Part shown: one piece after another, positions 2,468 to 63,190 of the stretch
Numbering within the stretch: position 1 is the first letter of the stretch
Layout: each line of letters begins with the position of its first letter
Assembly: GCF_964355755.1 (NCBI RefSeq)
Contig: NC_092677.1
Span: 10,066,101 to 10,130,100 of the forward strand
Length of the DNA stretch: 64,000 bases
Direction: 5' to 3'
From: Antedon mediterranea
Taxonomy: Eukaryota > Animalia > Echinodermata
Program-made: the position numbers and the translations under genes
The notes under the pieces: generated by a model
Told to the model about the DNA's origin: nothing
Database searches by the model: none
What the model saw: the letters and a program-made list of their open reading frames with translations, nothing else

Positions 2468-2910
2468 TTTGAAATATAATCGAGTTCAAAAGTTCAGGAA
2501 TCGTCTACTTATTTTATAACGAATATTACCTTTAAAAATGTCCTCAATTTAAGTATTATTATTGTCAAATAAATTCAAATAACAAAGTTGATAACGAAAT
2601 AATACACTATATATTATAAAAGAGAAATATTAAAATATCTTATATTCATTATCATAAATATTCTTTTTGTTATGATAGTTTTATCATTTATAAATGGTAT
2701 ATGCCGAAAATAAGAGCGAAGTCGATGTTTCAAAGAATCATAGTTGCCATTTCTGGCATTATTATGCTTTCTGGCATTTTTTGGAGGCTCACGGCATCTG
2801 GCATAATGCCGCGGCATTATTTAGCCGTTTTTAGCATAATCTGGCATAATTTCGTGTTTTTAAACAAACAAAAAATAATATATCACAGAACAATCTGGGA
2901 TTAGTCTTGG

Positions 2911-3018
2911 ATCTCGTACATATCATCTCGTACATTATCATCTCGTACATATCATCTCGTACATATCATCTCGTACATATCATCTCGTACATATCATCTC
3001 GTACATATCATCTCGTAC
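2911..3018. repeat. 14-bp tandem repeat (ATCATCTCGTACAT)n, about 7 copies, in the left subterminal region of the hAT
   Basis: Directly visible tandem copies. Confidence 0.9.
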
Positions 3019-4866
3019 AATATACAACAGTGCACTGTCACTACTACTACCGAGTGTGCGATAAGCAGCTCAAGAAACCAAGGTCTAGGATTGACCAATT
3101 AGGTTGCTCCATTTGAGAGATCATGCTGCTTATTGGATCCCCAGATGATGTAATCAATTGGACGAAAACATTGTGAACAAAGGTTTTTTTTTTCAATTAC
3201 ACAATTGCAGTAAGTATCCATCATTATCACTTGGAACCATTTAATGAACTGAATTTGGGTTGGGTCAATCGGCTCAATTACAGTGATTTAGTTTACTTGT
3301 TTATGTTATGTAAATATTTAAAAGGAACGAATAAAAAATAAAATCGAATAGTCCACTACAAAGTAAAACTGTTTCGTTCGCTCTTTTCAGCCGAAAATAA
3401 GTAGTTAACAGTAGAAATTTAATTTTTTTTTTTTACATGGATATACCCAGTGGATCGTACACTACATGATTCAATCACTTTTATGTTGGTTCGGTGGGGT
3501 TTGCTATGTTTTTTTTTAGGTTTGCAAGGGTTTGCTGGGGTTTAGCAATAACCTGTTTTTTCCGCCAAATTGGACGCCATATTGGATTCTGGCATGATGA
3601 TGTCATTGTTATCGACTCGATTTATCAACTACTATGAGAAGTAGTTATTAAAGTAAGCCTCAGCAAATTTTAATCATCATAACACAACTCCAAGTAAAAA
3701 AAACGTGAATTTGTTTTCCCTATCCCCTGGTTGGAGAGACACACCTTACCGGTGACAGCGTTTTGTTTAATGCTTTTGTCTTTCCTCGGCCTCGTGTCTT
3801 GTTTTTCATATATATATATATATATATATATGTCTACGAAACAAATTTGTAGTGATTAAAACAATGAAGTAACCAAGTTTTCTGCTGTTATTTTATTTAT
3901 TTATGCTCTACCTTGGTATTGAGCACTCTATCCAAACGGTCTGAAAATTTCAACCTGAGTATATATATTTCTATGTTTTTTTTTGTATTGCCGAAATGAA
4001 TAAAATAAAATAAAAAAATATATATAGGTATTTGTGTGTGTTAATAGGCATATTGTGTGTGTTATATAGGCCAAAATTTGAAAGTGCCGTAAAAATTTTT
4101 CCCCAAGACCCTGGGATGGGGATTTTTTTCTGACATTCTATATGGTATACTCTATCAGAAAAAAAAGAAAACAATTTTCCTATACTTTTTCCCCGCAAAA
4201 TTTGTACTGCACCAAGGCTAGAGAACTGTCAAAACACTACTTTCTAGGTGTTTTATGTGGTTTTCTTTTCAGCTGGAAATTCTTTAAAGTCATTGATTGA
4301 TAACATTTATTTTTAAATATGCAATAGGACTGTAAAGTGTGTCAGGTACTATGAATACTAACACTTTAGTGGTCCCAATGCACCATATGTACCAACTCCC
4401 AACATCCCTCCCTCTATGGCTTAATTTTTAACATTTTGTGCTGAAGTAGGCTTTTTTTGTATAACTGTATACACGTGCTTGTGATGAAACAAGATGTCTC
4501 AGTCCAATCTTTTTACGTTTGGCTTTAAAACCAGTGACGGTAACGTTGACTGCCTATTAATTAGGTTATGTCTTCTAATTGGCATTATGTCTAGATAGAG
4601 CCATAAAAATGTGTAGGCATATATTTCACAATGAAGTAGTCACAGGATAGGGACGGCTAGGTTATATTAGGTAGACACGGTAACAAGGCCTCGTCATTAG
4701 GACAGGGTGGGCTCATGGACACAAAATAATCAACAGAAATTTACAACAGTAGGCCTATCTAAAGCAAAACTAATTTACTATGTGCTGTCCCACATTCCAA
4801 CTTAATTTGGTTATCACACCATTTATTAAGGATTAACAAAACTGTGAAGTAAATTCTAAATTTTAG

Positions 4867-7800
4867 AAAATGTGCGAGCAGATCATACGACTAAGGCTGA
4901 AAGTTCTAAAAAAAAGAAAACCAAAAAAACATCTGTGGCATCAGGAGTACGAAGCCCAGGACCCAGTGAGTTTTGTTTTAATATTTACCCTTGTATAAGT
5001 ATATATAAATATATATTGAACATTAAGCTAATATATAGTCCTGATCACGCAATTCGGTGTCGCTTCGACTATAACAGAGTTCTCAATACAGTATTTGTTT
5101 ATTACATAAGAGTGTTTTGTCTGTCTGTCTTACTCTTATATGCCTAACAAGATTCACATTTGTTAAACAGGTCGGACAATTGGATCTACAAAAAAACAGA
5201 AGTGGTGGCGGAAATATGGAAGAAAAACGAGTACGTATGGTCTTGTATGGTTTTCAAATACTGTTTTTAAAAATTACGTCATTTTCATTGGTTTGTTAAA
5301 ATTTGTTTGCCAGTTGTAGCAAAAACAATACATGAATGTTTGGACTTGGTTACATGCAGAATATCTCACAATCCACCCGGAGATGGAAGTTGTCAGTTTC
5401 ATGCGATTATATCACAATTAGATCAGGAGTGGCCAGGAACACATTTACAGTTGAGAAGATCTGCTGTGCAGTACATAAAAAAACAGGTTAGTAATATAGA
5501 ACATCACTTTCTTTATTATTGGTTTTGTTAAATAAATTAAACTTATTTTCTGTAACTAGACATTGCTAACATGATTGGTTACTTTATTTGGTTAGTGCTT
5601 TAAAGATAGTGCCTACAAGACAAAATTACTAATGGTCCATAATTCGAAGTCTATACCTGATTTCGCAAGAAAGATGTCCAAAGTAGGGACATATGGTGAC
5701 GAGTTTACCCTGTCTGCTTGTGCAAAAGTGTTGAATACAGATATAATCTGTTTAAAATATGACGATGTTAATCGAAAAGGATTTTCTGTGAGATATTATC
5801 AGGAAGGACATAAGACACACGAAGACCCAATCATGCTTGCTTTACATAGAAAGCATTACTATGTCATAGGTACGTTTTAAACAATTAGTCAAAATAGTTT
5901 TCTATAGCTAAGTTTGAACGTAATGAACGAAATTAATATAACAGGTGAGTGCATTGCCCATGAACACAATTCTCATTTTCTGTTTGAATTTTAGAATAAT
6001 TGGACCTTGCTTCCAATCCCTACTGTGCTTTCTCAAAAAAAAAAGAGAAACTATTTGCGTTCTTAGAAGTATCATTATAAAATAATCTTCTAACTGCTGC
6101 ACATTTTTCCCTCTTTTTAGAACCAACAGATGATACAACTTCAAGTACTATCCTAATTGACGAGCCAGGTAGGCCATACTTGTGTAATATGGAAATACTG
6201 TAGTATGTGTTGGTAAACACATTATATTATTATATTAAACAATTTATCTAGCCACGTTGTATATATTATATTTATTTTCCAGAGCCAGATAATGATCATG
6301 GGAGTGATGAAGACAACATCCTTATTGATGATCAAGGTAGGCATAATTCGTTTTAATAAAAGTATGTGATGTATAAAATCATATTTCATAGTTAATGTAA
6401 CAAACCATTTGCACTAGCCATGTTGTCTACATTGAATTTTATTTTCCAGAGCCAGATAATGATCATGAAAGTGATGAAGAAAACATCCTTATTGATGATC
6501 AAGGTAAACATAATTCATTGTAATTAAAGTAGGCCTATGTGTTGTATAAAATCATATTTCGTAGTATGTAACAAACCATTTTAATAGCCATGTTGTATGC
6601 ATTGAATTTTATTTTCCAGGGCCAGATTATGATCATGAAGGGGATGAAGACAACATCCTTATTGATGATCAAGGTAGGCATAATTCGTTTTAATAAAAGT
6701 ATGTGATGTATAAAATCATATTTCATAGTTAATGTAACAAACCATTTGCACTAGCCATGTTGTCTACATTGAATTTTATTTTCCAGAGCCAGATAATGAT
6801 CATGAAAGTGATGAAGAAAACATCCTTATTGATGATCAAGGTAAACATAATTCATTGTAATTAAAGTAGGCCTATGTGTTGTATAAAATCATATTTCGTA
6901 GTATGTAACAAACCATTTTAATAGCCATGTTGTATGCATTGGATTTTATTTTCCAGGGCCAGATTATGATCATGAAGGGGATGAAGACAACATCCTTATT
7001 GATGATCAAGGTAGGCATAATTCGTTTTAATAAAAGTATGTGATGTATAAAATCACATTTCATAGTTAATGTAACCAACCATTTGAATATAGCCATGTTG
7101 TATGCATTGAAGTTTATTTTCCAGAGCCAGATTATGATCATGAAGGGGATGAAGAAAATATAATTATTGGAGATCAAGGTAAGCATAATTTGTTTTAATT
7201 AAAGTATCCAATGTATAAAATCATATTTCATAGTTAATGTAACCAACCATTTGAATAGCCATGTTGTCTACATTGAATTTTATTTTCCAGAGCCAGATTA
7301 TGATCATGAAAGTGATGAAGACAAAATCCTTACTGATGATCAAGGTAAACATAATTCGTTTTAATTAAAGTATGCAATGTAAAAATCATATTTCATAGTT
7401 AATGTAACCAACCATTTGAATAGCCATGTTGTCTACATTGAATTTTATTTTCCAGAGCCAGATTATGATCATGAAAGTGATGAAGACAACATTCTTATTG
7501 ATGATCAAGGTAAACATAATTCGTTTTAATTAACGTATGTGTTGTATAAAATCATAGTATATAACAAACCATTTGCACTAGCCATGTTGTATACATTATA
7601 TTTTGTTTTCCAGAGCCAGATATTGATCATGAAAATGATGAAGAAAACATCCTTATTGATGATCAAGGTAAACATTATTTACTTGATGTTTGATTAAAAA
7701 CATAATTTTTGTTTGTAAACAAATTATATGCTTGTATTAAACAATTTAAACAACCATGTTGTATATATTATGCTTTATTCCAGAGCCAGACAATAATCAT

Positions 7801-10800
7801 GAAAGTGATGAAGACAACATCCTAATTGATGGTAGGCATACATTTTTTAAAATTAATTAATTTTAGCAACTTTTATTTTAACTACAACAAGCATTTCCTT
7901 TCTTGGTGACGCCACTATTTTTTGGGAAATAAATGTTATTTTGATTGATTGATTGAACAATAATAATAATTTCAATGTTATATAGAGCTAAGGTGTTTAT
8001 TAAAATATAAAATGTGTATAATAGTTTTTCCATAATTGGCAAACGCCTATTTTTAATCAACAGATCATAGAGAAACAGATAATGAAGATGAAGAAACCAT
8101 TCAACAATCTAGTAAGCATATCCAGCCAGTTGTTTTGATTTATTCATTATCATCATGTATTTTCCGAATTTATGGTTGTAGGCCCCATTTTTTTAGATTT
8201 TTTTAAAAAACATTATTAGCTATGTGCTATTGCTTTTGTGCATTTTATATACCGTAATAAATATCATTTTATTGTGAAGACGTTCACTATCATGTCTTAT
8301 TTTATAATTCAGTCTTACATTTTAAACAATCTAAATTTTCCGTATCTTGCTTGATCACGCTGTGATGTTTAGACGCATAATGATTAAACATTGCAATAGT
8401 CTGGCAACTTAATGGCCGTTTTAGTTTTAACAATATCACAACAATCTATCTATATTAGCATCAATATTTTACAGTGACCTCTTAAGCCTAAACAAATGAA
8501 CGAAGACAACATTTGTAAGAAAAACTTTTTCTTTCATTAGGAAAAGAGTATAACCAAAGCTATCGACTTGATTGGGAACGTAAGAGGTGGGCCATAGGAT
8601 GGTTGACGAAAGGTTCAGAAAATAACACTGCCTTCTGCAAATGGTGTAGAAAAACGTTTCGGTCAAAGCTCTCGATTATAAGGCAGCATTCAAAATCCAG
8701 AGTGCATTCTACTGCAGCAAAGGCAACAAGAAGTATTCCGAAGCAAGGCATCGCACACTTTTACGGCAAAGCTGTTGTTGTTGAAGCGGAACTTAACTTA
8801 GTTGCTTTAATAGCAAGGAGGAATATTCCTTTTTTATTTTTAGACCATTTAATTCCAACACTACAAGAAATTATCAAGGACTCAAAAGTAATTACGAATA
8901 TTAAATGTGGCCGTACAAAAGGAACATATCTTTTAACCGAATGTCTAGCGCCATATGCACATAAACAGCTTGTTGGAAAGTTGAAAAAATCAAAAGGTAA
9001 TGTACCGCAACATTTAATCATCTCAACATTGTATTGTAAACTATTATTGAACTATTATTATTTGGGGTATGATCCTCACTATTTAATATGCTCTATTATG
9101 TTTAAGGTTTCTCTATCCTGTGCGACAAAGCCACCGATATGACAACAGAACAGACGTTTTGCGTCAGTGTTAGATTCTTTGACGAGGAAGACAAAAGAGT
9201 GGTAACTGCATTCTATCGTCTCCTAAAGGTTGGGGTAAGTGATGGAAATGCTGCTGGGTTGTTTGCTCTACTTCAAAAGACGTTGGAAGAAGATGGCTTA
9301 ACATGGAAGTCGGTGATTGGGTATGCCTCAGATGGAGAAAATCTAATGCAAGGCGACCTCAACTCTGTACTAACCAGAGTCAAAGAGGCATCACCCACAA
9401 TATTTGTCCTTAAATGTTTCTGCCATTCCTTTCATTTGGTGACAAGTCACGCATGTGAACATCTTTCAAAAAGTGCGGAGCAACTTGTGCACGATGTCTA
9501 CAATTATTTCAAAAACTCTTCAAAGAGGTACGTCTACTAACACAATGTAGTTTATGTGTAGTTTATGTGTAGTCCTTGATTTATCTTGAGTGAAAGTGTA
9601 TACTAATGTGAATTTGAAGATACATTGCACCTTCTAAATATTACAATTTGCTTCAAACCAGTAATATGAATTCTATTTATATGTTTTTAAGGAAACTGAG
9701 ATTTGAAGAGTTGCAGCGAGAGTTTAGTGTTCAACCTCATAAACTTCTAAAGCCTTGTCAAACGAGATGGCTTTCACTTGCAACTTGTGTACAAAGAGTC
9801 CTTGAGCAGTGGAAAGTTTTGTATGAATTTTTTGATGCAGAAGCCCATCAACCAATATCGAAGCGCAACCCAAGTGCAGTGAAAATCTACCAAGTGATGA
9901 AAGAAAAACATGTGAAAGCTACCTTAGAGTTTCTACACTATGTTCTTCCTGACTTCACCATATTAAATAAAATGTTACAATCGGATGAATTTAAACTGCA
10001 CAAGTAAGTCTTGGTAATTTGCCGATTAACCCTTTTTTATTTGCTTAATTGTTTGTTTACAGTATAAACTATATATTATGGAGGCTGAACTTATGCATAT
10101 AAAATGTCACGCCTGTTTTTCTAATAATGTCCAAGATATATTTAAGCGACGTATGTTCGTAAAACAGTTGTGAAATCAGTTCATTTTTCATTTTACAGAC
10201 TACTTCCTGAAGCAAGGAGAATTGTACAGTCTCTATGTGCAAATTTTATGCAAGAAGAATATATTGACGACACAATTAACAAACTTCCCGATATCACCAA
10301 TGAAGCCAAGTGGAAGATTGTAAGTGAAGTATATGCTGGGGAGGAAGCTGCCGTCATCTCCAGGTCTATGGTACCGCATGAAAGGGAGTCTTTCCTCAAA
10401 CGATGTCGGCAGTGGTACATAGAAGCTGTAAATCAGATAGGGAAAAGAATAAATTTCGATGACCAGATTCTACGTAACCTGGTTTCCCTTGACCCTCGGA
10501 AGTTAAAGAACAACCAGTCTACTATTTCTGCTGGCAATGCACTGGCCCACAGATTCAGCCACATGGTAACCAGCAAAAGCATGATAGATAGGCAGTGGCG
10601 TTCTTTGTACTTTAACAGAGAATTCCTGAAAAAGGCTCCACAGGGAATTACAGCCTTTTGGTTACATGTTTCTGAGGAAGACAGTTACAAGAGCTTGGGG
10701 GAATTTGCATGTCAGTTACTAGCACTACCCCATAGTACAGCAACTGTAGAACGAGTTTTTTCAAAGGTTAGCCTTAACAAGACAAAATGTCGGAACCGAC

Positions 10801-10985
10801 TTGGTCTTGTAACCCTTGAAGCAGTCCTGACAACATCCCAATGTTTCAAAGGCAATTTCGTATCTGACCCTACACTATTTGAATTGTACAGCAAAGCATT
10901 TTATTCGTACAAGGCAAGGTTTTCTGATTGTGACCGGGAACGATATGAAAACGAAGACCAAGAACAACCACTTTTAGATGTGTAG
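4867..10985 (+). CDS. Spliced OTU-domain / acidic-repeat / zinc-finger / hAT transposase fusion (~1,070 codons, 5' start not located)
   Basis: Exons 4867-4965, 5171-5230, 5314-5486, 5596-5869, 6121-6168, nine 54-nt exons from 6283 to 7667, 7784-7831, 8064-8111, 8541-8996, 9107-9527, 9692-10003, 10199-10985 join in frame with GT-AG sites. Motifs: PGDGSCQFHAI, YGDEFTL, KHY (OTU); FCKWC..HSKSRVH (zinc finger); FSILCDKATD, YASDGENLM, CFCHSFHL, CQTRWLS, PHSTATVERVFS (hAT). First two exons are less certain. Confidence 0.8.
5314..5869 (+). CDS. OTU-like cysteine protease domain (two exons) within the hAT element
   Basis: HNPPGDGSCQFHAIISQL...HLQLRRSAVQYI and KMSKVGTYGDEFTLSACAKVLNTDIIC...IMLALHRKHY match the OTU cys-loop, WG/E-like and his-loop motifs. 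Confidence 0.85.
6121..7831 (+). repeat. Tandem array of ~158-170-bp exon+intron units encoding EPDxDHExDEDNILIDDQ
   Basis: 54-nt exons at 6283, 6450, 6620, 6787, 6957, 7125, 7291, 7456, 7614 flanked by ttccag / gta(g/a); related 48-nt exons at 6121 and 7784; 337-bp two-unit duplication (6450->6787, 6620->6957). Confidence 0.92.
8541..10985 (+). CDS. hAT transposase core (zinc finger, DDE, CxxH, C-terminal dimerisation domain), 4 exons
   Basis: ORF-track pieces 8603, 9139, 9648, 10170 join via introns 8997-9106, 9528-9691, 10004-10198 without stops. Confidence 0.92.
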
Positions 10986-11912
10986 GCTAAAGTAATATGT
11001 AAATGTTGGTACAGTATATTGCTCTGTACCATTAACCGACTGCGACATTAATAATCACTTGGAAACAGAAAGGTAGAAAATTGGAATAAAAACAATACTA
11101 GGTCCTATCCTTAATAGGTAACGCTTTTTTGTAAATAAAAGCTTTGGAGAGGTTTTGATGGGGCGGCATTGAATTTATTATGTATTATAAGTGTGTTATT
11201 GTTTTATAGGATATAAATCCAGAATAAATACGAATGCGTTTCCATCGTCCAACTCCCTTTCTACACACGCGTATAAGCTGACGCTACCCTTTCCACCACA
11301 AGAGTACTGCGATTTTTATGTTCATCGCCTACTGTCTGCTGCTGAGCATGAGTGCTCATTTACTGAGCTCTGATTGGTTGTGAAGTTTTTGCTTTGAAAA
11401 AAAGTAGAAAAAATTCAATTCGCCATTGATCACTATGATTGAATGATTTTGCATCCATTTTTTTTGTATATGGACACTTATTTAAAGAAAAAAAATAAAC
11501 GCACATTTAATAACAAAAATATAAATGTAAATTTTTAACATTGCGAATCTAATTTTAGGCCTTTTTTGTGTCAATTGGCGTTTTACAGACTTTTTAGGCA
11601 TGTAGCCGTTGGTGGCGCTATTTAGTTCTACATTTTTTGGAATCTGGCATTATTTTTCCCAATCTGGCATTATTTGAGACAGGCTACGGCATAATTTAAA
11701 TTTTATCGCTGGCAACGCTGCAAAGAATGACAAAGGATTCGTAAATCAAGCGAGAGGTCGTTGTTGACTGTTTATTGTGTGAAAAAAAGAAGGAAAACCA
11801 TTTAGATTCTCAGTATTAACTGGTACACGTGGTTAAGTGTTATTTTAGGCACAAGTTCTGTTTAGATTGAGACTAGAATACGGTATATTTTAGCCTGTAT
11901 AACTCTGCGAAA

Positions 11913-16433: not shown

Positions 16434-18672
16434 TTATTTAAAGAGAGGGTGAAGATATTTGGAAAAATACTTATTTCTTTGTCGGGCTATTACAATGTGC
16501 AACACTTCATTATTTCGTTTGAGAAGTTTACATCGTGAAGGTTCGTTGGCTCCTAAATTGTTCCCGCCAGATCGTTCAGTAGCACATTCACTATTCATCT
16601 GAACCAGCATTGTCCGAAACAAATTAAGATCTCTTTGAAAGTGAGGACCATAGTGAGCAACCTTATTCCATAGAGTTTGATTAAAGTGTGTGTAAAGTAA
16701 CATATCAACTGAATTCCAATGTTGGATTGATTCTGTAAGATTCTGCGTCAATGGTGTTCTAGCTAGTCGTGCGTTCTGTTTTATGTACAAAATGTCCTCC
16801 CATGACCAGCAAAGCAGTTGTCGAAGAATCACCAATGATTCGTCCAAGTGCTCTAAAATAACAACCATTTCAAATTCCTTATCAAGCCGTTGAATATATC
16901 TGTCTACTACTTCTAAATCGCCGTGATACTCGTGGTCTAACCCAAGATCAAAGATCTGGCTGTTCTTTGCGTGAAACCACGGAACACCTTTCATTCCGTA
17001 CCAAGTAACATATTTTAACTTTTTCCGGTAAGAATCGGGTTTGCGAAAGAATTCTTCAAGACGCTGTTGTCCGGTTAATTCTTTACTAATACCCATGTAT
17101 TTTGATAGTTCGAAAAATGAGAAGGCAGATTCGAACTGAGTGGTCGGTTCCCGGATTATTGTAATATACACGGTGCCTGGTTTCATGAATGCGTCCATGA
17201 CTGGTCTGGAGTAACGTATATGTATCCCCAATAGGTTGTATTTATAATTTTTGTAATCTTTAATGCTAACACCCAAAGGTGGTAAAAAACTATACTTAGC
17301 CATGTCGCTGGAAAGTCCTTTTAAAATTCCGACGTGACCATTCATTGTACTATTTTTACTGAAAACAAATGAGAGGTTGTTACGGTATCCAAAAATATCT
17401 ATTATACTAGCTAAGGTGGTGCTACCAGTTTTATGTGTTTTTATATATGCAATGTTTGTATGCATTGAGCAAGTTTTGGTCATGTGCTGTCCCTCGTCAC
17501 TCCAACTCGATAGGAAATCCTCAAAACCATTCGAAGTAAGCCTACTGCCATTTTGTCTGTAAATAATAAATATTCGTTAGTACATTGACGGACATCGATT
17601 GAATTATAGATTATTAATATTATAGTTATACGATAACTGTGTTAAATATTGAAGTTTAGCTCCAGTTTTAGAATGTCTATTGTTTTGAGGTCATGGGCTT
17701 ATGCTATTACAAAACTCGTTCTGCATCTGCATCACTGTCAAATGTTGTTGCAATATGTTTGATGTGCCCATGTTGTAGATGTTATATCACTACCATATCA
17801 CTACCATATTTGGGCACATTAAACTTTTTTGTCGAACTAGTTTGATAGTGTAGACAGAGCTTGAATGCATTATCGATTCTATAGGCAGCACAAGAAGCAT
17901 GGCATATTGATCGATCAAAGGAATTAATCAATTCAATTGGTCCTTCATGCGGAGATTATCGATTGAGTATGCTTTTCAACTTACTTATTTGGGCTTCCAT
18001 AATTTCTGTCCGGTAGAATCAATTGTGACTTCTCTTGATTATAATAAGAATAAGTTATTAAGACTAACAAAGTCATCATTACGAAAGCATATAGTAATCT
18101 CTGTAAACACAAGTTGAAATTGTAAGTTAAAAATGTATATATAATAATAAATTTCACTACAAGTTATAGATGATCTTCATTGCCGATGTTCTTGTTGAGT
18201 TATTGGTGTATAACAATAAATAAAATGTGTTAACAATATATCATTATTTTGCTTATCATCATGTTCAAAATATACAGTGTCTTAAAATAAGTATTATTAA
18301 GCAGATGGCACTCTATAAAGCTTGGTTCCCACTAGAACGTGAGAGCAACGCAAGCGAATTGTTGACCAATGAAGCGCGTCAAGTTCGGATAATCCGTCGC
18401 GTGATTGGTCGACTTACTTATTGCGCGCGCTGACTTAAGCTTGATTCCCTCGTTTACTTAAATGTAATTAAAAACTTCCGTATATATTGAGCATAAATTA
18501 GGCGTACTGATGAATCAATGAATCAATTAATACGTACTTTAAGACAGTATAAGTTCCTCCTTTGCTTGACAGGCCTATATAGTCCGGTCCTCATGCTAAC
18601 AGGATGAAACTGGGTTAGGTATGGACTTAGCCTATTCGTATGGGATCGACTGCTGGATTCTGTTACCTCCAT
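16434..18672 (-). CDS. Galactose-3-O-sulfotransferase family (GAL3ST-like) type II membrane protein, 3 coding exons
   Basis: Exons 18538-18672 (alternative ATG at 18594), 17985-18100 (TM segment LLYAFVMMTLLVLITY), 16434-17556 (KTHKTGSTT 5'-PAPS motif, TIIREP 3'-PB motif, DESLVILRQLLCW, WNSVDMLLYTHFN). Confidence 0.9.
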
Positions 18673-27687: not shown

Positions 27688-30600
27688 ATGGCCCAATGCG
27701 CACAGAGTGCGCGGGAATTCATTCAGAATTCATTTGGGCCTATGGTGGCTGTTTTATGTAGCCACGACGCTGAGGTCATTGCACAGAAGAACAACCTGAC
27801 ATTTGTGGAAATGGCACGGCCCTTCTGTAGGCTCACGACCGAAGGTAAATGGATGGAGTACTGTACCTTAAATTATGTTTTGTTAATTATTTTGTCTACC
27901 ATCATTAATAGGTGTTTGCATCATGATCCATTTTGACTATTATTAGACATGATGTGTAGGGCCTGGTAGGCCTAGCTAGCTAGCTAGGCTAGTTATCCTA
28001 CTAGAATAAAAAGATTAGGAAAAAAAAGAGTATTTTGCACACCACAGTGTCATATAAATATATGTGCCAGTACAGTAGACCTGGATAATGAAAAACAATA
28101 AATTAATTACAATTTTCCCTATGAACACATAGGCAAGGAGAATCGGTACTAATATAGGCCTAGGCCTAGTTTCCGTTACAAATGCACAATCTGTCTTACT
28201 CTTAAGTAGTATACTAGCTAGTAGAGTAGTAGAAGTACAGTACATTATATGTTTCTGTTGTTTTCCAAAACAACTTCACAGTAATGTGACATACTGTAAA
28301 AATTAGATTAGAATCATGTGTTATTATTATTTTAATATAACTGCCTCCCATTTTCAGCTCATATTCGAGATCCACAAGGGCAGGTGAACTCGATTCGCAA
28401 CATGCGTATCATTCTAAATGATATGAACAGTCAGCCTCCATCTTCTGCTATTGTCAGAAAAATGCTCAATGATGTAGTCGGAAGTATACACCCAAACGCT
28501 GAAGCCTCCAAAAGCATCATCACAGCTGGAAATTACAATCTACAGCTTAGTAGTAAGTTTTAAAAAAGACTCTTAGTGAAAAAAGGGTTGTATAATACTA
28601 AATAGTGAAAAGGGGCTGTATAAGATTGAAAAAAAGGTTGTACAAGAGTGAAAAAAAGGTTTTATAAGAGTGAAAAAAAAGTTTGTACAAGAGTGAAAAA
28701 AGGATTGTATAAGAGTGAAAAAAGGTATAAAAAAGGTTTGTATAAGAGTGAAAAAAGGATTGTATAAGAGTGAAAAAAGGTATAAAAAAGGTTTGTATAA
28801 GAGTGAAAAAAAGGATAAAAAAGGTTTGTATAAGAGTGAAAAAAGGTATAAAAAAGGTTTGTATAAGAGTGAAAAAAGGATAAAAAAGGTTGTACAAGAG
28901 TGAAAAAAGGATTGTATAAGAGTGAAAAAGGGTATAAAAAAGGTTTGTATAAGAGTGAAAAAAGGTATAAAAAAGGATTGTTTAAGAGTGAAAAAAGGTA
29001 TAAAAAAGGTTTGTATAAGAGTGAAAAAAAGTGTTTTATAAGAATGAAAAAGAGGTTGTATTTAAGAGTGGAACAAATTGTATCTATAAGTAAGATTGAA
29101 AAAAGGTTGTATAAGAGTGAAAACATATTTTTATAAAAAGGATTGTTTAAGAGTGAAGAAAGGTGTCATGTAAGAGTGAAAAAAAATTGTATATAAGAGT
29201 GAAGGGTTGTATTAGAGTAAGTTGTGGTTTGACACAGTCCTGTTATATAGTTATACAATGGGTAGAATTAATAAAAACTATTTCTTTTAAACAATGAAGT
29301 CTAATTACAAAACAATTTGTTTAGTGCATTTTGCTGTATGCTATTTATATTTAATCCCTCTAAAGAGCAGCTCTTGGCAATTAATTAATATAATTATTTT
29401 TAGGCCTGGCACAGAAAAATAAGGTGAATATACTGTGTCATTGTTTCATAGTTACCTTCTTTAGGACATTCCTTGAATAATTAATAACATGTTTACTTGA
29501 TTTAGTTTTGGTTTTACTTTCCAAAACGATAATGTTTCAATGGTCAAATTCAATTGTTTTTCTTTCAGGTTCAACTCCATGGTTTGAAGCATACAGAGAG
29601 CACTTCCTGCAAGTTACACTTCCATCTGAACATGAATTTATTCGTCACTTCATTGCTTGTATCCTTCAGAAATCAAAACATACTTCACTAATACATGTCC
29701 TCTTTATATGTTGTCCCTGAATAGGGTTGGCCATAGTGTTGAAACATATACTGCCACTTAGTCATTAACAAGAAAATGTCCCTGAATAGAGGTGTCCCCT
29801 GAGTAGAGGTTGGCCGTAGTGTTGAAACAAATATTGCCACTCGGTCGTTTAACCCGGGGAAAATATCCCCTTAATAGTGTGTCCCTGAATATGAGTGTCA
29901 CCTAAATACGAGTGTCCCCTAAATAAAAGAGTAAAATCTGTACAGATTCTTTCATGTACTATATTATGTACATATCCTTCAGATTTAAGGACCTCATTAT
30001 AAATTTATCCTAGCCCATTGTTTTTCTGTATACATAAATAGTAAAGTATCATGGCAAATTCTGTGATACAGTATCACATATGTAAAGTTGTTTGAAAGTG
30101 AATGTAAAGTTGTTTTGTACGCTGACGATTGTGCAATTTTTTACTCCCATAAAGATCCAATCGCAATCCAATCTAAACTCCAAAACAATCTCGTATCATG
30201 CAATAATTGGCTGATCGACAATCAACTTTCGCTTCATATGGGTAAGACCGAATGCATCCTGTTTGGTTCTAAACGTAGATTAAGCAAAGTAAACGAATTC
30301 TATATTGATTGCTTTGGAACGACTATAAATGGATCAAAATCTATCAAATATCTAGGTATTGAGATTGACCAAAATGTATCAGGTGACGTCATTGCCCGCT
30401 CTGTTATAAACAAAGCAAACGGCAGACTGAAATTTCTGTACCGACAATCATCATTTCTTAATTCGCATTGTCGCAAAATTCTTAGTTTTGCTTTAATCCA
30501 ACCGATGTTCGATTATTCGGTTTGCTCATGGTCTTCTACGGTAAATAAAAATTTAAAATCAAAATTACAAACGACTCAAAACAAAATGGTTCGTTTTATA

Positions 30601-33600
30601 AAAAAGTTAGGTCCCCGATCTCATGTTGGTCAATCTCAGCTAAACAACGTTGGTATGTTAAAAGTCCAAGACCGTGTCGAATTTCTTAGAGTCTGTCATG
30701 TTTTTAAAATATATAATCATTGTTGTCCACCTTATTTATGCAATCGTTTTATTAGAATTTCAGACAGTCATAACTACAATACTAGGGGATGCAATTTTAA
30801 TTTTAGAATCCCAACTATCAAGCCAATGGCACATGTGACCTTTTTTTACAATGCTATTAAAGAATGGAATAATTTACCAATTAACATTAAGGAATCACAA
30901 ACTGTTTGTTGTTTTAAAAGTAAAGTTAAAAAGTATCTACAGGAACGTTCACTAGCTCTAGAAACTAATTAATTAGCGCTTCTTCTTTTTTCGATTGTCC
31001 TTTTTGCTGTTTTTTGTCATTTTTATTATGTTGCTTTGTTTGTCTTTTTTGATGTTCTTTCAAAGGACCTCATTGGAAACAAGTCCGTAGAGGACTTTTA
31101 TGAGTTATCCTTGGCATCCTTGTTTTATATTGGTATTTTTATATTTGTCAATTTTAATTGTATGTCTGTGATATTTTATGTACTGATGCCGAAATAAATC
31201 AAATCAAATCAAATCATCATAGGCCATAAGCCTAACTTAAAAATAACACAGGTTATACGTACATATGTAACACTGGGAATCCGTAACACTGTATCACAGA
31301 ATTTGCCTAATGAGACTGGTTATATGTGAAGATATGGTACAGAAAATCAAGTGTTTATTCTGTGCCAATAATTATGTGACCAAGGATGTACTAATCATAA
31401 ACATAAACATTTCTTGTTTCTTTGTATATTTACCCTTAACTGCCCCGTCAGGTATGCTTGTTGTATCCTCCAACCATGCAGACCCTATTGATCAGTTTTC
31501 TAAGTTAAACCAGCAACAGCATCAGCTGCAGCATAGTAGTGGGATCAACAACCCTAAGTGGCTTTGTCCAAACATCTTCAAGTACTACATCTTGTTACAT
31601 GATAACACAGAAGGAGAAGAGGAAAAGTAAGAGTACCCTAAAGGCCCATTTACACTAGGACGATAACGATGGACGATAAATATATAAACATGCATTTTTT
31701 TTACATAAAACAAAATAAATTAGAAAGGTTTTCGTTCTAGAACTATAGGATAATCATTTATGCTGTCTTTGATAAAAATGTTTTTAAAATTCCAATCAAA
31801 TGACGTCATGATAAATAAAAACAATAAAATAGTTGTATTGTCACGATATTATTGCTCTTACTAATCATGACGTCATTTGATTGGACATGTGAAAATATCA
31901 TTTTCATCAAAGAAAGCATAGAAGGTTATTCTATAGTTCTAGAATGAAAAGTTTTTATATTTCTTTTGTTTTATGTATGAAAAATGCACATTTGTCTATT
32001 TATCGTCGATCGTTATCGTCCTAGTGTGAATGGGCCTTTATGCTATGTATTTGATTTTTTTATAGTCTGCTGCTATAAATTTCATTGAACTGTGTTCAAG
32101 ATAAAAATTCAGCTTACAGTACAATATATTTCAGTTACAGTTATAACCCCTATTAAGGGGACTCGTTGGTACACCCAATATTGGTGTGTGCCAAAGAAAG
32201 GGTCTAGTTTAATTGACTATTTTATATTGATTACATAGAATTATTATACATATCCTTTCGTCCTACCCCTCCTGTCATATATGGTAATGCAGTGTGTATT
32301 TAAAAACACACCAGATTATCTACTTAAAGTACTGTAAATTACACATTAAGTGTCATTTGGAATTAGCCCTAGCTTACGGAAAATAATATACTTTTTTTTT
32401 TAAAGTAGGTGTGTTATAAAACAAATAATGAATGTTTTGTATTCGTTGAATGGAGAGAATATTTCATGAGTTTAAAAATTGACTGCTCTATTTTCAACTT
32501 GGCTCGTGCCTCGTTATATAGAGCAGTCAATTTTTCAACTCATAAAATATTCTTGCCATCCAACTCATTCATTATTTGTTATACTAACCAACACAAGGTC
32601 TTGGGATCTAATCTTGATAAACATTCTTTTTTATAAATATTTCTAACAGAGCTGAAGCTGTCTATCAAAGCATGAAGTCCACGTATGGCTCTCACGCCTG
32701 CCATTTGCTAAGAATAAACTCAAGATCCTTACAAGCGGCTGAGGTTGCTTCCATCGGGAATGAGTACACAGCGAATATGCCGGATCCATGGAGCCAATTT
32801 ATGACTAATAATTCAGTAGATACTGGTCCTGTAAGTATTCCTTGTTGAGAATAACAATATTTAATGTTTTTTTTCATTGATTGCATAGAGATTTACTCCC
32901 CCTCCCCAATCAACTAAATAAGATTTAATTATAATAAAGAATAACTTTTAGATTGGTTCTTGTAATTCATAGGATCAGGTAGAGATGGATATATCTCCAA
33001 ACGTTGATAGCGGCGGCTTTCCAGACAAAGTGACAGAAGCTGATCCGGAACACATGAATGATCCCACTCAGCCTGGGGAACCATTTCCAGAAGATGATGG
33101 TAAGCATGTGACAAGAAACTTGTTTTCTTCTTTTACAGGATCCTCAATAATGTCTTTAATTATATGATCTATATATTATTGTTTTTTTGCCATTATTGCC
33201 AATTCACAACCAACAGATAAAAATACCTCCATTAGAGGAAAACAAACCACATACAAGATACAAATATGATACAAATATGTTCATATATTTAATGATCATT
33301 GACATTTAATTTATTAAAATTAACAGCTAATCTTACTAAAATAATTGAATTTACTATGATTATATAATACTGTATGTATAGTATCATGATTAAAAATCAA
33401 ATTTTCAGATAGTCCAAATGGACCAATGCCCGACACAAATCCTTCGCATCCACTTTCCCAGCCAAACGATGTCGTCTCGCACCCGTTAGCTGTCGGCCAC
33501 GAAGCAAACGAATCGCAAACAATTATCACCGAAGACAACATGGATGCGACAGATGGAAACAATAAGGACATTGTTTTAAATAAACTTGTTGGTGTTCACG

Positions 33601-36600
33601 GCGCCTGTCTTACGTTGAGTGATCACGATCGATTACGAATATTCATCCATGAGTTTGTTGTGCGCGGATTGTTGCCGTATATTGAGAAGATGATTCGCAC
33701 ATTGAGTGAGCAGGTATGTCTGCAAGTTATTGCAAAATCAACTCAATTATTTTATTCCGTCAAAAACTTTGGCTCGAAAATTGTCTTGCTTGTACAAACA
33801 AAATACTAACAAAATCTTCTTCTCAGTACCATGCATAAATGTAAATGGGGGAATTTTCTGCAACTTGCAGCCTACTGGGTTAAATTGCACACAGTTGTGG
33901 ATGACACATACCACAACTTTCTTCTCCCCTAAGGGTCCCTTCGTGTTGAGTGCTGCCACCAAATGGTACCTGTACACAAAGTGTTAGTGTTATTAATATA
34001 CCAGACCTATATAAATTCCTGTATACTATGGATGGTGCAAGTTTACCATATCTTTCTATAGCACCCATTGGCATGATTCCACGATTTGTTAACGATTTTA
34101 CAATGCCAAGTAATAAAATATACACTTTTCTTTATAGAGTACGGTTAGTTATAAGTATTTTTTGGGATTTTTTTCAGTTGGCCTCCAGGAAAGGAATTTC
34201 GAGGAGTTTTATTAGCGCAACTAAGAATTGGTTTGGTGGCAAAAGAAATTCAGATAAGGCTAACAAAACACAAGTTGACATGGGCGGAAAGTATGTACAC
34301 AGTAAAATCATGGAACTCTCTCCATAGCATTGGGAGGGTTAACTTTAATAGTATTATTGCTGCTAAAGTATATATTATCACAAATTTGATTTTAATATTG
34401 TACATAGTTTTTGTAATTCTTTATTTTATTTTTATTTATTTATTCAAATATCCACTAATTACAGAAAAAAACTGAATTGCTTGGGATTTACAAAAAATAT
34501 AGTAATATAAAAAAAAAACTTCATGCTTGTATTGTTTGTCTGGAGTTGGAGAGACTCGTCCTTTTGGCAATAGTTGTCTTGTTGATTGATCTCTTCTCCT
34601 CAGTGTTCCCTTTTTATGCTTCACTGAATGGAATAAATAAAATAAAATTATAAATGTGTTTCAAAATCATTATCCCAATACAATACTCATAATTAAAGCA
34701 ATTCCATTATTTCTACACAATATCTTCTTTATTTACTTTGTTTACATTTATTTTAATCATTGTACCATTTTTTCTAGGTACTTACGTGAATCTCCAGAAT
34801 TACAAATGCGTCGTCTTGGAGATCTGGCGTTTCTAGTTCAAATGTACGAGCTAGCGTATACATCATTCCATACAGCAAAACGGGACTTCAATAATGATCA
34901 TGCGTACATGCATTGTGCTGGAGCTCTAGTGAGTTTTGTTATTTTTTACAAATATTTTTTTATTACCATATGATGCCTTGGTATGATATTTGAGGTTGGG
35001 ATTATACTTGGATTGCATTGTGAATATGTTGTGCAGGGCCATAGCCAGGATCTGTCAAGGGGGGGTTCGCACATTAAGTATTTGGGTCACCCCACCCCCA
35101 TACCTACCCCCCCCCCCCTGGGGTGGGCCTGAGGCGAAGCAAATTTTGTTATATGACACCCCTAGATGGCCGGAAAAGACACTCTCATGCAGCATTCTAC
35201 CAATGAGCAAAACGATCGTACTTGGACTCGTGGACTATTTAAACGATAACATTTGTTGCCGTATGTTAGATGCGCGTGCTCTGTGCGGAACCGCCGATTG
35301 TTTGATCATTTACTCGATATTTTGTTTTGCGTTCAAGTTCAATGCGAACGTACGTCTACGAGAAGCCCCGAAAAAAGCACACTGGGTGAAGGCAAATGCA
35401 ATTCTTATTATAGCTCTATCTATAATATTTATTTACAGCAATTTGTTGAGGAAATTAAATATGCCAATGTAAATAGGTGATATTGATACATTTGAGTACG
35501 TATCGGCGAAGCAAATTTTGTTAAATGACACCCTTAGATGGCCGGAAAAGACACTCTCATGCAGCATGCTACCAATGAGCAAAACGATCGTACTTGGACT
35601 CGTGGACTATTTAAACGATAACATTTGTTGCCGTATGTTAGATGCGCGTGCTCTGTGCGGAACCGCCGATTGTTAGATCATTTACTCGATATTTTGTTTT
35701 GCGTTCAAGTTCAATGCGAACGTACGTCTACGAGAAGCCCCGAAAAAAGCACACTGGGTGAAGGCAAATGCAATTCTTATTATAGCTCTATCTATAATAT
35801 TTATTTACAGCAATTTGTTGAGGAAATTAAATATGCCAATGTAAATAGGTGATATTGATACATTTGAGTACGTATCGGCGAAGCAAATTTTGTTAAATGA
35901 CACCCTTAGATGGCCGGAAAAGACACTCTCATGCAGCATGCTACCAATGACCAAAACGATCGTACTTGGACTCGTGGACTATTTAAACGATAACATTTGT
36001 TGCCGTATGTTAGATGCGCGTGCTCTGTGCGGAACCGCCGATAGTTAGATCATTTTACTCGATATTTTGTTTTGCGTTCAAGTTCAATGCGAACGTACGT
36101 CTAGGAGAAGCCCCGAAAAAAGCACACTGGGTGAAGGAAAATGCAATTCTTATTATAGCTCTATCTATAATATTTATTTACAGCAATTTGTTGAGGAAAT
36201 TAAATATGCCAATATAAATAGGTGATATTGATACATTTGAGTACGTATCGGCTGGTGGTCTAGAAAAAAATAATTGGATGCCATAATGTGAACTACAGTA
36301 CATGATACCATAGATATTATAGTGTAAAATATTAATATTCACTATAATCCTCTATGATACATTATACTTCATAGCCACACATAAATACTGATGTATGTCG
36401 GAAGGCTATATACTTTATGCATGCTGCCTGACTGCCAGTGATCTAAACAATTGGTACGCAGTTGTCTGGCGGTGTCCTTTGTACGAATCGTTCGTCCCCC
36501 AGCTCGCTGTGAGACGCGTCAATATCATGGTGAATGCAGGGACCAAACATTTATTTTTCAGGTTAAAATCGGCAATTCATTTGCAACTCTTAGAAATTTA

Positions 36601-39600
36601 CAGACTATATCGCTCGAAGTACGCTCATACAGGGAAGAAGGTACTGTATGAGTTATTCCGAACAAGTTTACGAATTTTTTAATTTACGAACAACTTTTTG
36701 TACTGTGGGGCACGTATTTGGACGATTTTCGGAGATGAGGGTGAGGTATTGGGCATGTCGGGGATGGGGGTTCGCAGTCAGTTAAGGGGGGTTCGCTGTA
36801 AAGGGGGGGGGGGGGGTTCGCCCGAACCATAAAAACCCCCCCTGGCTACGGGCCTGTTGTGTCTAAATTTACCAAAAATTAGGGGATGGGATTATAATCA
36901 AACATGCCTAGATAATTGTGTAAGAAAGGCTGATAATAATCCTTACGTTAAGCTCGGTTTACACTATCAAACTAGATATGACATCACATTTCTTGTCACA
37001 TAAAGTTTGATGGTGTAGGTAGACAGAGGTTTATCAATTTAAAAATTATTTTTCCTAGGAAATGGCAGCTACATCTGCATTTATGGTTGGTAGTTTTAAC
37101 AAGGTATATCCATCGCATTACATGGATAGTGCTGTATCAATGTATGCCCATACGTGCAAGTAAGTGAAAATATTTACTCGATTCTCAGGGCTGTATCTCC
37201 ACATACTATAATATTTGCCCAGTATCGTATGAATATTTGGTAATACAGCATCTCATTTGTATCACATGTGGTGCCTGTATCATGTAAGATTAGGTTATCT
37301 ATGATAATAGGCAAAACATGTGAAAGACATATGATGCTGGGTTCTCAATTATGGAATGGAAGTTCTATTATAGCAGTTGCATCCAGTCCAGGGGGATTTT
37401 TAAATTTGTATATTTATATTCAATCGTCTAAATTTTCAGGCAATGCTTATTACACAAGTTCTTTATATCTTTGTCATGCTATTGTATTACACCTCCCATT
37501 CACCTACAGACCCTAACTATGATAATAACGATGTTTTTTACCTTTGTAATTTTAGGAAACCTAGCTTTGCGACACGGGCAATTCTCTTAAGTACAGAAAC
37601 ACTAAAGGCAAGGGGCATGTATGGAGAAGCTGCTATGGAATTTATAAGAATGACTGGAGAGGTAATTCAAAAAAATATGACTATAATTATTATAATATAA
37701 TTATCGTAGTAGTGATTATTTACTGATGTTTTTGGTCAGCATAAAAGCCAATTTACACAGACGAGAGGTAACGGTAAGCAAAAAACCCCGTAGTTCTTCA
37801 CTAGCTTATTACCGTTACCACTCGTCTGTGTAAATTGGCCTTTAGAATATCTAGTTTTAGGAAAGCTGATTGTTATCATTTTATATGTGTTCAAATTCTT
37901 AAGCTCTGTCTACACTATCAAACCAAATATGGTAGTGGTATGAAATCATCATGTCCATATATGGGCAAATTACATAAAGTTTGATAGTGTAGACAGAGCT
38001 ACGTTTACGTACGCATACCTAAATTGAAATTCTTGCTTTATATTGTAGGATTCAGATTTGCGAAGTGCATTATTTTTAGAACAGGGTGCACATTGCTTTA
38101 TCAACATGAAGACGCCGATGGCTCGTAAATACGCTTTCCACATGATACTGGCAGGTCATAGGTATAGCAAGGCAGGACAGGTACGCAAGCATCATTTGTA
38201 ATTTTATTTCTTAACCATAATTCAATGGGATGAATAATTGTTTGCTACGAAGTCAGTCATTTGGCATACTTTGTCATAGTTTAAATTTATTTACATATTA
38301 AGTAATTCTTAGGTGGGTCTCGAACTCATGACCTCCAACCCTTGACCTGAGAACATTTTAAAAGCTTTTATAACTGACTGAGCATAACGTTCTGCCATTT
38401 ACGACAATCTTAAATAATCCAAAAAATGTATTTACAGTAAATAAACTGCTTTTTTTTTAAATAGAGAAAACATGCTTTAAGATGTTATTGTCAAGCGCTT
38501 CAAGTTTATAAAGGAAAAGGATGGATCTTATCAGAGGTAAAATATATTATAAATGTACATTGTACCTATAAACAAAAATATACATACATATATATGCATT
38601 TTAAATCTAAGAAGCCAGTTTATATAGTAATATGATACAATCATCCATGTTCATAAACCGCTTTTGTAATCTTTCTTTTGGGCCAAAGTTTTATTTTTTT
38701 AATGCAAAAGTCTACATTTTAACAATATGCTTATTACAATATTTTTATCACCTTGTATCCTTGGGTATAATCCTAGTATTGACTTTTGGTATGGATGTGG
38801 GCCTCTCTCTAGCCAGTTTAGATGAGTTTTTACAAGAAATGCTTACCAATCATTTTTTTCCTGAACTAGGGTTTCTCCGGGGTATATTTGCACCATACAA
38901 AGTCGGCCCAATTTCGTGTTCTAGGGAGGTGGGATTATACCAGAAGATATATCGTACATTATTTTGATGTTTTCTTTACAATAATAGGATCACATCAACT
39001 TTACCATTGGTCGACAGTCGTTCAATTTAAAACAGTTAGAGAATGCAAGTGCGGCATTCAAACATCTATTGACATACGACAGTCGACAACCAGCTGTCCA
39101 ACAGGCTGCATTTCTGAGAGAATACCTCTTCGTTTTTCAGGTAATAAATGTATTATTGAGTGTGTTACAGCACAATTTTTAGTAGAGTAAAACATTGTGG
39201 ATTTTTAATGTACACAGTAATTGGTGACCAATAAAACCCCAGAGTATAACTAAAACCATACTACTAATAAAAAGTCATAACTGCATACATCTATTCTCAC
39301 TGTGACATACTAAATGTATATACAATATGCCTAGCTCTGTCTACACTATCCAACTTTATGTGATGTGCTCGTGTGCACTTTAAAGAACCTAGTACATCTT
39401 TCGAGACGAGTAGGGGGTTACCCCGGTGTACTAGTTCACACACACACTGTCGTGGACAGACTTAATGGTGTGAAATAGCGCTATATAAATGTCGCATTAC
39501 ATTATATGGACATAATGATATCATATCATTATTTATATTTGGGCATATCACTACCATATTTTGGCAGATCACACTTTTTTTGTTAAACTTTGATAGTTTG

Positions 39601-60900: not shown

Positions 60901-63190
60901 CCACTTGCCCCGGCCCAGTGCGGGCAAGTACGTGTTTAAAAGCAATTTCAAATGCGTATTTTTAGCATTAATTTACTAAGAATTAATAGCACCACTTTTA
61001 AAGTGGCCATATGACCACACCCCAACGCCTCGGGCCGAGAACACAATAGTATAGATTGACGTAGAATGGTCCTGGCATTCCAGAAATGTGCCACTTGCCC
61101 CGGCCCAGTGCGGGCAAGTACGGATTTTAAAGCAATTTAAAATGCGTATTTTTAGCATTAATTTAGTAAACACCACTTTTAAAGTGGCCATATGACCACA
61201 CCCCGACGCCTCGGGCCGGGTACACAATAGTATAGATTGACGTAGTATGGTCCTGGCTTTCCAGAAATGTGCCACTTGCCCCGGCCCAGTGCGGGCAAGT
61301 ACGTGTTTAAAAGCAATTTCAAATGCGTATTTTTAGCATTAATTTACTAAGAATTAATAGCACCACATTTAAAGTGGCCATATGACCACACCCCGACGCC
61401 TCGGGCCGGGAACACAATAGTATAGATTAACGTAGTATGGTCCTGGCATTCCAGAAATATGCCACTTGCCCCGGCCCAGTGCGGGCAAGTACGGATTTTA
61501 AAGCAATTTAAAATGCGTATTTTTAGCATTAATTTAGTAAACACCACTTTTAAAGTGGCCATATGACCACACCCCGACGCCTCGGGCCGGGTACACAATA
61601 GTATAGATTGACGTAGTATGGTCCTGGCTTTCCAGAAATGTGCCACTTGCCCCGGCCCAGTGCGGGCAAGTACGGATTTTAAAGCAATTTAAAATGCGTG
61701 TTTTTAGTGTTATTTTACTAAGTATTAATAGCACCACTTTTAAAGTGGCAATATGACCACACTCCGACGCCTCGGGCCGGATTCACAATAGTATGGATTG
61801 ACGTAGAATGGTCCGGACATTCCAGAAATGTGCCACTTGCCCCGGCCCAGTGCGGGCAAGTACGTGTTTTAAAGCAATTTAAAATGCGAATTTTTAGTGT
61901 TATTTTACTAAGTATTAATAGCACCACTTTTAAAGTGGCCATATGACCACACCCCGACGCCTTGGGCCGGGTACACAATAATATAGATTGACGTAGTATG
62001 GTCCTGGCATTCCAGAAATGTGCCACTTGCCCCGGCCCAGTGCGGGCAAGTACGGGTTTTAAAGCAATTTAAAATGCGTATTTTTAGTGTTATTTTACTA
62101 AGTATTAATAGCACCCCACTTTTAAAGTGGCAATATGACCACACCCCGACGCCTCGGGCCGGGTACACAATAGTATAGATTGACGTAGTATGGTCCTGAC
62201 TTTCCAGAAATGTGCCACTTGCCCCGGCCCAGTGCGGTCAAGTACGTGTTTAAAAGCAATTTCAAATGCGTATTTTTAGCATTAATTTACTAAGAATTAA
62301 TAGCACCACATTTAAAGTGGCCATATGACCACACCCCAACGCCTCGGGCCGGGAACACAATAGTATAGATTGACGTAGAATGGTCCTGGCATTCCAGAAA
62401 TGTGCCACTTGCCCCGGCCCAGTGCGGGCAAGTACGGATTTTAAAGCAATTTAAAATGCGTATTTTTAGCATTAATTTAGTAAACACCACTTTTAAAGTG
62501 GCCATATGACCACACCCCGACGCCTCGGGCCGGGTACACAATAGTATAGATTGACGTAGTATGGTCCTGGCTTTCCAGAAATGTGCCACTTGCCCCGGCC
62601 CAGTGCGGGCAAGTACGGATTTTAAAGCAATTTAAAATGCGTGTTTTTAGTGTTATTTTACTAAGTATTAATAGCACCACTTTTAAAGTGGCCATTTGAC
62701 CACACCCCGACGCCTCAGGCCGGATACACAATAGTATAGATTGACGTAGTATGGTCCTGGCTTTCCAGAAATGTGCCACTTGCAACGGCCCAGTGCGGGC
62801 AAGTACGGATTTTAAAGCAATTTAAAATGCGTATTTTTAGCATTAATTTAGTAAACACCAGTTTTAAAGTGGCCATGACCACACCCCGACGCCTCGGGTC
62901 GGGTTCACAATAGTATAGATTGATGTAGAATGGTCCTAGCATTCCATAAATGTGCCACTTGCCCCGGTGCGGGAAAGTACGTGTTTAAAAGCAATTTCAA
63001 ATGCGTATTTTTAGCATTAATTTACTAAGAATTAAAAGCACCACATTTAAAGTGGCCATAATGACCACACCCCGACGCCTCGGGCCGGGTACACAATAGT
63101 ATAGATTGACGTAGTATGGTCCTGGCATTGCAGAAATGTGCCACTTGCCCCGGCCCAGTGCGGGTAAAATGCGTATTTTTAGCATTAATT
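55000..63190 (-). repeat. ~187-bp satellite array, left arm (about 44 units) with higher-order repeats
   Basis: Unit ...CCACTTTTAAAGTGGCCATATGACCACACCCCGACGCCTCGGGCCGGGTACACAATAGTATAGATTGACGTAGTATGGTCCTGGCATTCCAGAAATGTGCCACTTGCCCCGGCCCAGTGCGGGCAAGT...; ORF-track periodicities 371, 748 and 4677 bp. Confidence 0.97.

Follow-up and report, generated by a model that had tools for sequence, protein, structure and literature searches.

A hAT transposon of Antedon mediterranea with an OTU domain predicted in frame with its transposase

A 64,000-nucleotide stretch of the genome of the echinoderm Antedon mediterranea (RefSeq assembly GCF_964355755.1, contig NC_092677.1, positions 10,066,101 to 10,130,100 of the forward strand; hereafter the window) holds an unbroken transposon of the hAT superfamily, at 2739-11720 (8982 bp, ~9.0 kb), inside whose ends lie exons for an OTU domain, upstream of the transposase. 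The element is likely autonomous and apparently recently mobile, and the product made from it is probably a single OTU-transposase fusion of 1085 amino acids, as predicted from the sequence. OTU domains paired with a transposase are known from other transposon groups, but their pairing with an intact hAT element appears to be new. An earlier note on this DNA had proposed an intact cut-and-paste element carrying its own deubiquitinase. The intact element, the position of the OTU exons within its ends and one possible in-frame fusion hold up, whereas the fusion as the actual product is probable and the activity of the OTU domain likely, with a competing splice donor at 5945, possible exon skipping and a tyrosine, Tyr215, near the catalytic histidine as reservations.

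The ends of the element were located by eye and then checked computationally. It is flanked by an exact 8-bp target-site duplication (TSD), CAAAGAAT (2731-2738 and 11721-11728), of the length expected for hAT elements, and ends in terminal inverted repeats (TIRs) of 11 bp (2739-2749 on the plus strand and 11710-11720 on the minus strand) that match at 9/11 bases; the available text of PMC3942097, which divides the superfamily into the Ac, Buster and Tip groups, gives 10-25 bp for hAT TIRs. Public reads (four runs, from at most two samples) confirm these ends independently of any search for TIRs and TSD, since contigs of all four runs contain the empty site, with position 2730 joined to 11721 and the eight letters fitting either side. 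The TIRs and 8-bp TSD proposed earlier are thus borne out twice, by sequence and by the empty-site joint. TGGCAT repeats are found just inside both ends on the plus strand (four copies at 2754-2847 and two at 11645-11670); as subterminal repeats in hAT elements serve transposase binding, these are likely the binding sites. The left arm also contains 7.7 copies of a 14-bp tandem repeat (2911-3019), found by a repeat scan, and three AATAAA motifs at 11085-11228 (plus strand) are polyadenylation candidates.

The same reads bear on mobility. In run X1, a 56-nt contig covers the filled right junction (26 + 30 letters on its two sides, slightly under the bridging rule) at depth 140, versus 317 for the flank, and the empty allele is present too, so that filled and empty site occur in one sample. 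The other sample is represented by run X5, possibly an RNA run, which contains the empty site but does not reach into the coding region. Two internal contigs, 2117 and 1845 nt long, have zero differences to the element, and their depth, about 1.5 times that of the flank in X1 and X3 and 1.8 to 3.4 times in X4, leads to a rough estimate of about three identical copies per diploid genome, although depth is no direct measure of copy number. Behind the right end of the element (behind 11719-11724), contigs continue into many different sequences, which indicates that a large family of non-autonomous copies uses the same ends; pieces of the non-coding 5' part (3134-4401) are common to many other genomic copies, and one deletion derivative joins 2812 to 3348. 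Together, the filled and empty alleles, the difference-free contigs and the many copies sharing these ends point to recent mobility.

The transposase is encoded by exons 17 to 20, on the plus strand as are all exons described here. Exon 17 (8541-8996) contains a zinc finger (C460, C463, H483) at the start of the transposase, exon 18 (9107-9527) holds the catalytic D586 and D655 and C683xxH686, exon 19 (9692-10003) an insertion domain with R745-W746, recognised by alignment to relatives and by the family profile, and exon 20 (10199-10985) E1008, placed by alignment to Hermes, the hAT dimerisation domain and the stop codon (10983-10985). All of these residues up to W746 are present in 14/14 aligned relatives, and E1008 in 12/14, the two exceptions being proteins with aberrant ends; the zinc finger, D, D, CxxH and E listed in the earlier note are therefore intact. 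Its proposed HMMER comparison with Dimer_Tnp_hAT, once run, gave a match of exon 20 to PF05699 above cut-off (E 1.7e-7), and a profile of the transposase family matches Hermes structures (E 8e-4) in an alignment that takes in the RW and Glu regions. Labels among the relatives include DUF4371 and FAM200/ZBED5-type. By its TIRs, TSD, motifs and dimerisation domain, the element is thus a member of the hAT superfamily; its polymorphic insertion with a TSD would be an indirect sign of transposase activity. Like other members of the superfamily, for which Hermes is the structural model, it combines short TIRs, an 8-bp TSD, subterminal repeats and a zinc finger with a DDE transposase bearing CxxH and RW, a C-terminal dimerisation domain and many non-autonomous derivatives. 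It differs from usual hAT elements in its length (9.0 kb versus 2.5-5 kb), its 21 predicted exons and a 427-residue N-terminal extension with the OTU domain and acidic repeats. As a separate observation, contigs of a second transposase copy, diverged from this one by at least 8 differences, underlie a portion of exon 18 (9187-9476) at about flank depth in X1, X3 and X4.

The OTU domain is divided between exon 3 (5314-5486) and exon 4 (5596-5869), which match consecutive parts of the 128-position Pfam OTU profile (PF02338), a second comparison that had been proposed earlier: exon 3 covers profile positions 1-40 with an E-value of 0.036, below the cut-off, and exon 4 positions 45-123 with 9e-6 and 26.7 bits, above the cut-off of 23.3. 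In the ESM Atlas, 24/30 matches to exon 4 are OTU clusters (top 0.95). A PDB sequence search gave no match with exon 4, and OTUD3 (4bou, E 0.034) as the best match of exon 3, aligning the GDGxC Cys loop and the helices that follow it. The catalytic Cys95, in GDGSC of exon 3, aligns with this loop, and His213, in exon 4, falls where the Pfam match ends. Of the Asp, Cys and His motifs described earlier, Cys and His are thus present; the usual third triad site, however, is two residues after His213 and is occupied by Tyr215, so that the Asp within GDGSC does not fill it. According to the accessible part of PMC7396840, OTU proteases follow a pattern of C...H-aromatic-D/N/E, and mutation of the third residue in other OTUs causes complete, partial or no loss of activity; the OTUD-type proteases have D/N/E at the site where this element has Tyr. 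In A20-type OTUs, an acidic residue ahead of the Cys takes the place of this third residue. Given Tyr215, the domain is likely, but not certain, to be active as a deubiquitinase. AlphaFold2 gave a confidence score (pLDDT) of 37.6 for exon 4 alone, a half-domain query.

This OTU has no close sequence relative. Exon 4 (91 amino acids) retrieved 0 relatives at E<=0.001 from 1.84 billion representative proteins, and therefore does not stem from a recent capture out of a conserved OTU gene of the host; for a query of only 91 residues, this suggests that the module has long resided in mobile elements.

The earlier gene model comprised 20 exons, all of which have AG/GT ends and join into 1069 codons and a stop, whereas the two alternative frames contain 58 and 122 stops. 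The open frame of about 1,070 codons is thus real, but it has no start codon. Among 25 upstream combinations of an ATG with a phase-1 donor, ranked with a donor matrix, the best is 4494-4539 (ATG 4494, 15 codons), which joins in frame to give 21 exons and 1085 amino acids, and is likely the first coding exon that had been missed (exon 0). Residues 3-10, encoded there, and more weakly residues 495-502, contain a putative PCNA-interacting peptide (PIP)-box-like motif; both serve as leads only, and a literature search for a PCNA link had nothing relevant among the results listed. Exon 1 (4867-4965) encodes a basic segment resembling a nuclear localisation signal, a label given from the letters, and exon 2 (5171-5230), placed by its splice signals, another basic segment. 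An alternative start at ATG 4870 with donor 5235 also leaves the frame open, but this donor is weaker, and the candidate was set aside. In 19 of the 20 model introns, no internal GT beats the model donor as a match to the U1 consensus. The three junctions within the transposase are collinear with the relative P0001 (50% over 578 residues), and one of them is crossed by P0033, an annotated 297-residue A. mediterranea protein identical to residues 789-1085.

Between the OTU domain and the transposase, exons 5-16 (6121-8111) encode a linker of 210 residues, 46% of them Asp or Glu. The acidic linker described earlier is therefore present, with the correction that it is a tandem array of ~168-bp units, each made of one exon and one intron. 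Its exons (nine of 54 nt and three of 48 nt) are all phase 1-1, and the ten linker introns that were aligned, 104-116 nt long, have 10 distinct gap spans, six of which are not multiples of 3. The chance that all 10 gaps fall in introns by length alone is ~2%, by a hand calculation in which the events are not fully independent, and the mean distance between units is 0.095 for exons versus 0.156 for introns. These data support a linker that is spliced and translated, rather than one conserved in sequence. Separately, introns 15 and 16 hold high-copy repeat fragments (7889-8522).

The transposase part appears to depend on the exons upstream of it. There is no in-frame ATG ahead of exon 17, where a splice acceptor replaces the start of the family, so that the transposase must start in an upstream exon; the first Met within exons 17-20 is residue 591, after D586. 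By comparison, an MPK start lies 5-9 residues before the exon 17 point in 20 of the 34 relatives that reach it. These come from a search with the family profile that gave 176 relatives, 120 of them listed, and the 34 have at most 44 residues ahead of exon 17. P0010, P0013, P0005, P0007, P0002, P0011 and P0006, hAT transposases of ~650 residues from invertebrates and other animals, have their MPK start directly ahead of the zinc finger and lack OTU; they are 45-49% identical to the element over exons 17-20 and share its catalytic residues. In one relative (L002:1525-1560), a splice-acceptor-like site immediately precedes the MPK start codon, a hint that the family may contain an intron in its 5' untranslated region, which would allow recruitment of exons from upstream.

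None of the 120 relatives listed of the 176 contains PF02338 or has a phmmer match to the spliced OTU, and a rescan of 24 relatives, out of the 34 that extend to the beginning of exon 17, gave 0/24; gene prediction that disregards introns, and could therefore miss upstream exons, is probably the source of many of these proteins. A quick 27-row tree places the transposase of the element as sister to a 17-row MPK clade, and OTU is likewise missing from the rows farther away. Since the OTU is missing from the listed relatives and from the distant rows, the simplest reading is that the module was likely gained on the branch of the element. Searches for longer relatives offer weak evidence, with 1/1890 candidates for exon 20 and 0/6117 for the family alignment. 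Viral contigs gave no match to exon 3, exon 4 or the transposase profile. In metagenome contigs, 0/13 transposase loci had an OTU match, four of them with more than 5 kb upstream and two of these four being weak matches, and there is no OTU among the best 10 of 30 ESM Atlas matches listed for P0010. One relative of 919 residues, P0014, has a Tc1/mariner-type C-terminal piece (Pfam HTH_Tnp_Tc3_2) and is probably a merger of gene models.

Whether OTU domain and transposase are made as one protein bears chiefly on intron 4, at the junction between the OTU domain and the linker. From ATG 4494 to the end of the model, the only stops lie in the 75 nt after donor 5870 (in frame at 5879 and 5906), as expected for an intron, and this donor is identical in six intron bases to the homology-validated donor 9528. 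Several points weigh against the fusion. Intron 4 is the one intron with a better internal donor, 5945, located 75 nt downstream of 5870 in the same phase, with a score that only 2/3785 plus-strand GT sites reach. The junctions ahead of exon 17 were drawn from splice signals and phase only, and public annotation covers just the last 297 residues (P0033). Constraint on the linker is weak, with 4 changes at 7.7 synonymous and 13 at 43.3 non-synonymous sites. On the side of the OTU domain, the tyrosine in place of D/N/E at the residue two after His213 and the OTU-less listed relatives, which mark the domain as dispensable for this family, add to these points, as does the fact that the searches yielded no second OTU-bearing lineage that could show selection.

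An explanation compatible with the fusion is that the OTU exons are hitch-hiking passengers, weakly active or dead, kept in frame only by the need of the transposase for an upstream start. A frame forced open upstream of the transposase would account for the missing stops without any OTU function, and both the Tyr at His+2 and an OTU required by 0/120 of the listed relatives fit this view. Against it, Cys, His and the surrounding motifs have been kept despite the divergence of exon 4 from all library proteins, and a useless module could easily be lost or skipped in frame, the OTU exon pair being flanked by phase-1 introns. We regard such a passenger as unlikely, although far from negligible.

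A further explanation is that no fusion is made, and that the element yields two products, a free 220-residue nuclear OTU protein and an OTU-less transposase, with the OTU helping in trans. Use of donor 5945, or read-through, would give the former, ending at stop 5879, whereas a start at ATG 5923 would give a transposase of 875 residues and skipping of exons 3-4 one of 936; all three products are open. In favour of this scheme, 5945 alone among the internal sites of the 20 introns scores above the model donor and has an in-phase ATG ahead of it, the OTU exons are skippable in frame, and AATAAA motifs at 6355 and 8256 could terminate an OTU-only message. However, a stop codon upstream of many introns normally triggers nonsense-mediated decay, to which a message with stop 5879 ahead of 16 introns would be exposed; a start at 5923 requires a promoter within an OTU exon; and the identity of donor 5870 to the validated donor 9528 speaks for its use. 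On balance this scheme is unlikely. The fusion and the alternative splice routes are not mutually exclusive, and a splice switch can be imagined in which the choice of 5870 or 5945 determines whether the fusion or a free nuclear deubiquitinase is made, each with the PIP-box-like motif at its start; we consider such a switch improbable. Were it true, this motif would recruit the OTU to PCNA, and the element would edit ubiquitin where DNA is replicated or repaired, to its own benefit and that of its many non-autonomous copies, while controlling its own transposase output, as the P element does through its third intron. Finally, a chimeric assembly, or the chance proximity of a piece of a host OTU gene and an unrelated transposase, is largely refuted and most improbable: no single contig covers the whole element, but one contig spans 4184-6300 without differences, the remainder is covered by further contigs of matching depth (446-490 in X1), all parts lie within one TIR/TSD pair with an empty allele, and host OTU genes give no match.

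If the fusion is made as predicted, it would be an OTU cysteine protease tethered by a long acidic linker to an otherwise ordinary transposase of ~660 residues. The OTU may have arrived as a phase 1-1 exon module, the linker may have grown through tandem duplication of an exon-plus-intron unit, and the transposase would have lost the start codon of its family, its ATG now being supplied by exons upstream of the OTU. The tether could then carry the protease to the transpososome, where it might strip ubiquitin from the transposase itself or from nearby chromatin or repair proteins, with a longer transposase life or easier excision and integration as the outcome; splice variants (donor 5945, or exons 3-4 skipped) may additionally yield free OTU or OTU-less transposase. 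Even granted the fusion, this tethered-deubiquitinase mechanism, proposed by analogy, is tentative.

DNA transposases have captured OTU domains repeatedly. The occurrence of OTU domains in Ginger elements and Helitrons, as stated earlier, agrees with PMC2836005, PMC11417382 and PMC9741609; for Dada elements, by contrast, the main text of PMC3706591 does not contain OTU, ovarian, protease, peptidase or Ulp1. For Ginger1, OTU fusions have been described, with the proposal that they act on repair by controlling ubiquitin (Bao, Kapitonov, Jurka 2010, PMC2836005). As predicted for the Antedon element, a cut-and-paste transposase is fused in frame to PF02338, in intron-containing genes of aquatic invertebrate hosts, but the Ginger1 transposase is Gypsy-integrase-like, its OTU is C-terminal and its target duplications are CCGG/CCGT. 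The present element has a hAT transposase, an N-terminal OTU, an 8-bp TSD and an acidic repeat linker, and the first three of these features rule out membership in Ginger1. Helitrons carry OTU domains as well (PMC11417382, PMC9741609, PMC6431247, each in its accessible part), with a deubiquitinase-type domain likewise upstream of the transposition enzyme in Helitrons/Helentrons and OTU acquired independently more than once. Their enzyme is of the rolling-circle RepHel type and activity has been shown for VTD domains; these Helitron VTD deubiquitinases were suggested to shield transposition proteins from degradation, and transposon OTU domains were stated, in the available text of the same 2022 paper, to be untested (PMC9741609). 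Membership in this group is excluded by the presence of a DDE transposase and a TSD and the absence of a RepHel-sized open reading frame from the element. In the accessible part of PMC5751038, OTU appears solely as a filter term.

That OTU is not known as a standard hAT domain, as noted earlier, is in line with the accessible literature, in which no description of an intact hAT-OTU element was found; Repbase, Repbase Reports, Dfam, supplements and most subscription papers were outside this search. The element thus apparently adds hAT to the transposon groups that have acquired ubiquitin proteases. It would also be an example of module gain by phase-1 exon shuffling and of linker growth by duplication of whole exon-plus-intron units. 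The hAT superfamily is among the best studied and a source of gene-transfer vectors. An unbroken, apparently recently mobile copy and OTU-less relatives at 45-49% identity offer a natural with/without comparison, and the role of transposon OTU domains becomes testable in a standard excision/integration assay.

As for its surroundings, the element was apparently inserted recently between two housekeeping genes. These are arranged head to head, with start codons 456 bp apart at the empty site: an RBFA-like gene starts at 2467 on the minus strand (Pfam RBFA, a match below cut-off with E 0.008), and an SS18-like one at 11913 on the plus strand (SSXT, E 2e-10). The 9-kb insertion lies in what is likely a bidirectional promoter, on one of two alleles. 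Elsewhere in the window, a 380-codon open frame at 16434-17576 (minus strand) matches galactose-3-O-sulfotransferase (E 1e-56), a reverse-transcriptase fragment at 30067-30972 (plus strand, Pfam RVT_1) is probably the 3' end of a non-LTR retrotransposon, and exons of a TRAPPC8/Trs85-like gene extend over 33390-42692 (plus strand). Three near-identical 372-bp tandem units occupy 35133-36252, and a satellite array fills 55033-64000 with more than 43 copies of ~190-bp units in a higher-order period of ~371 bp, at a GC content of 43-45%.

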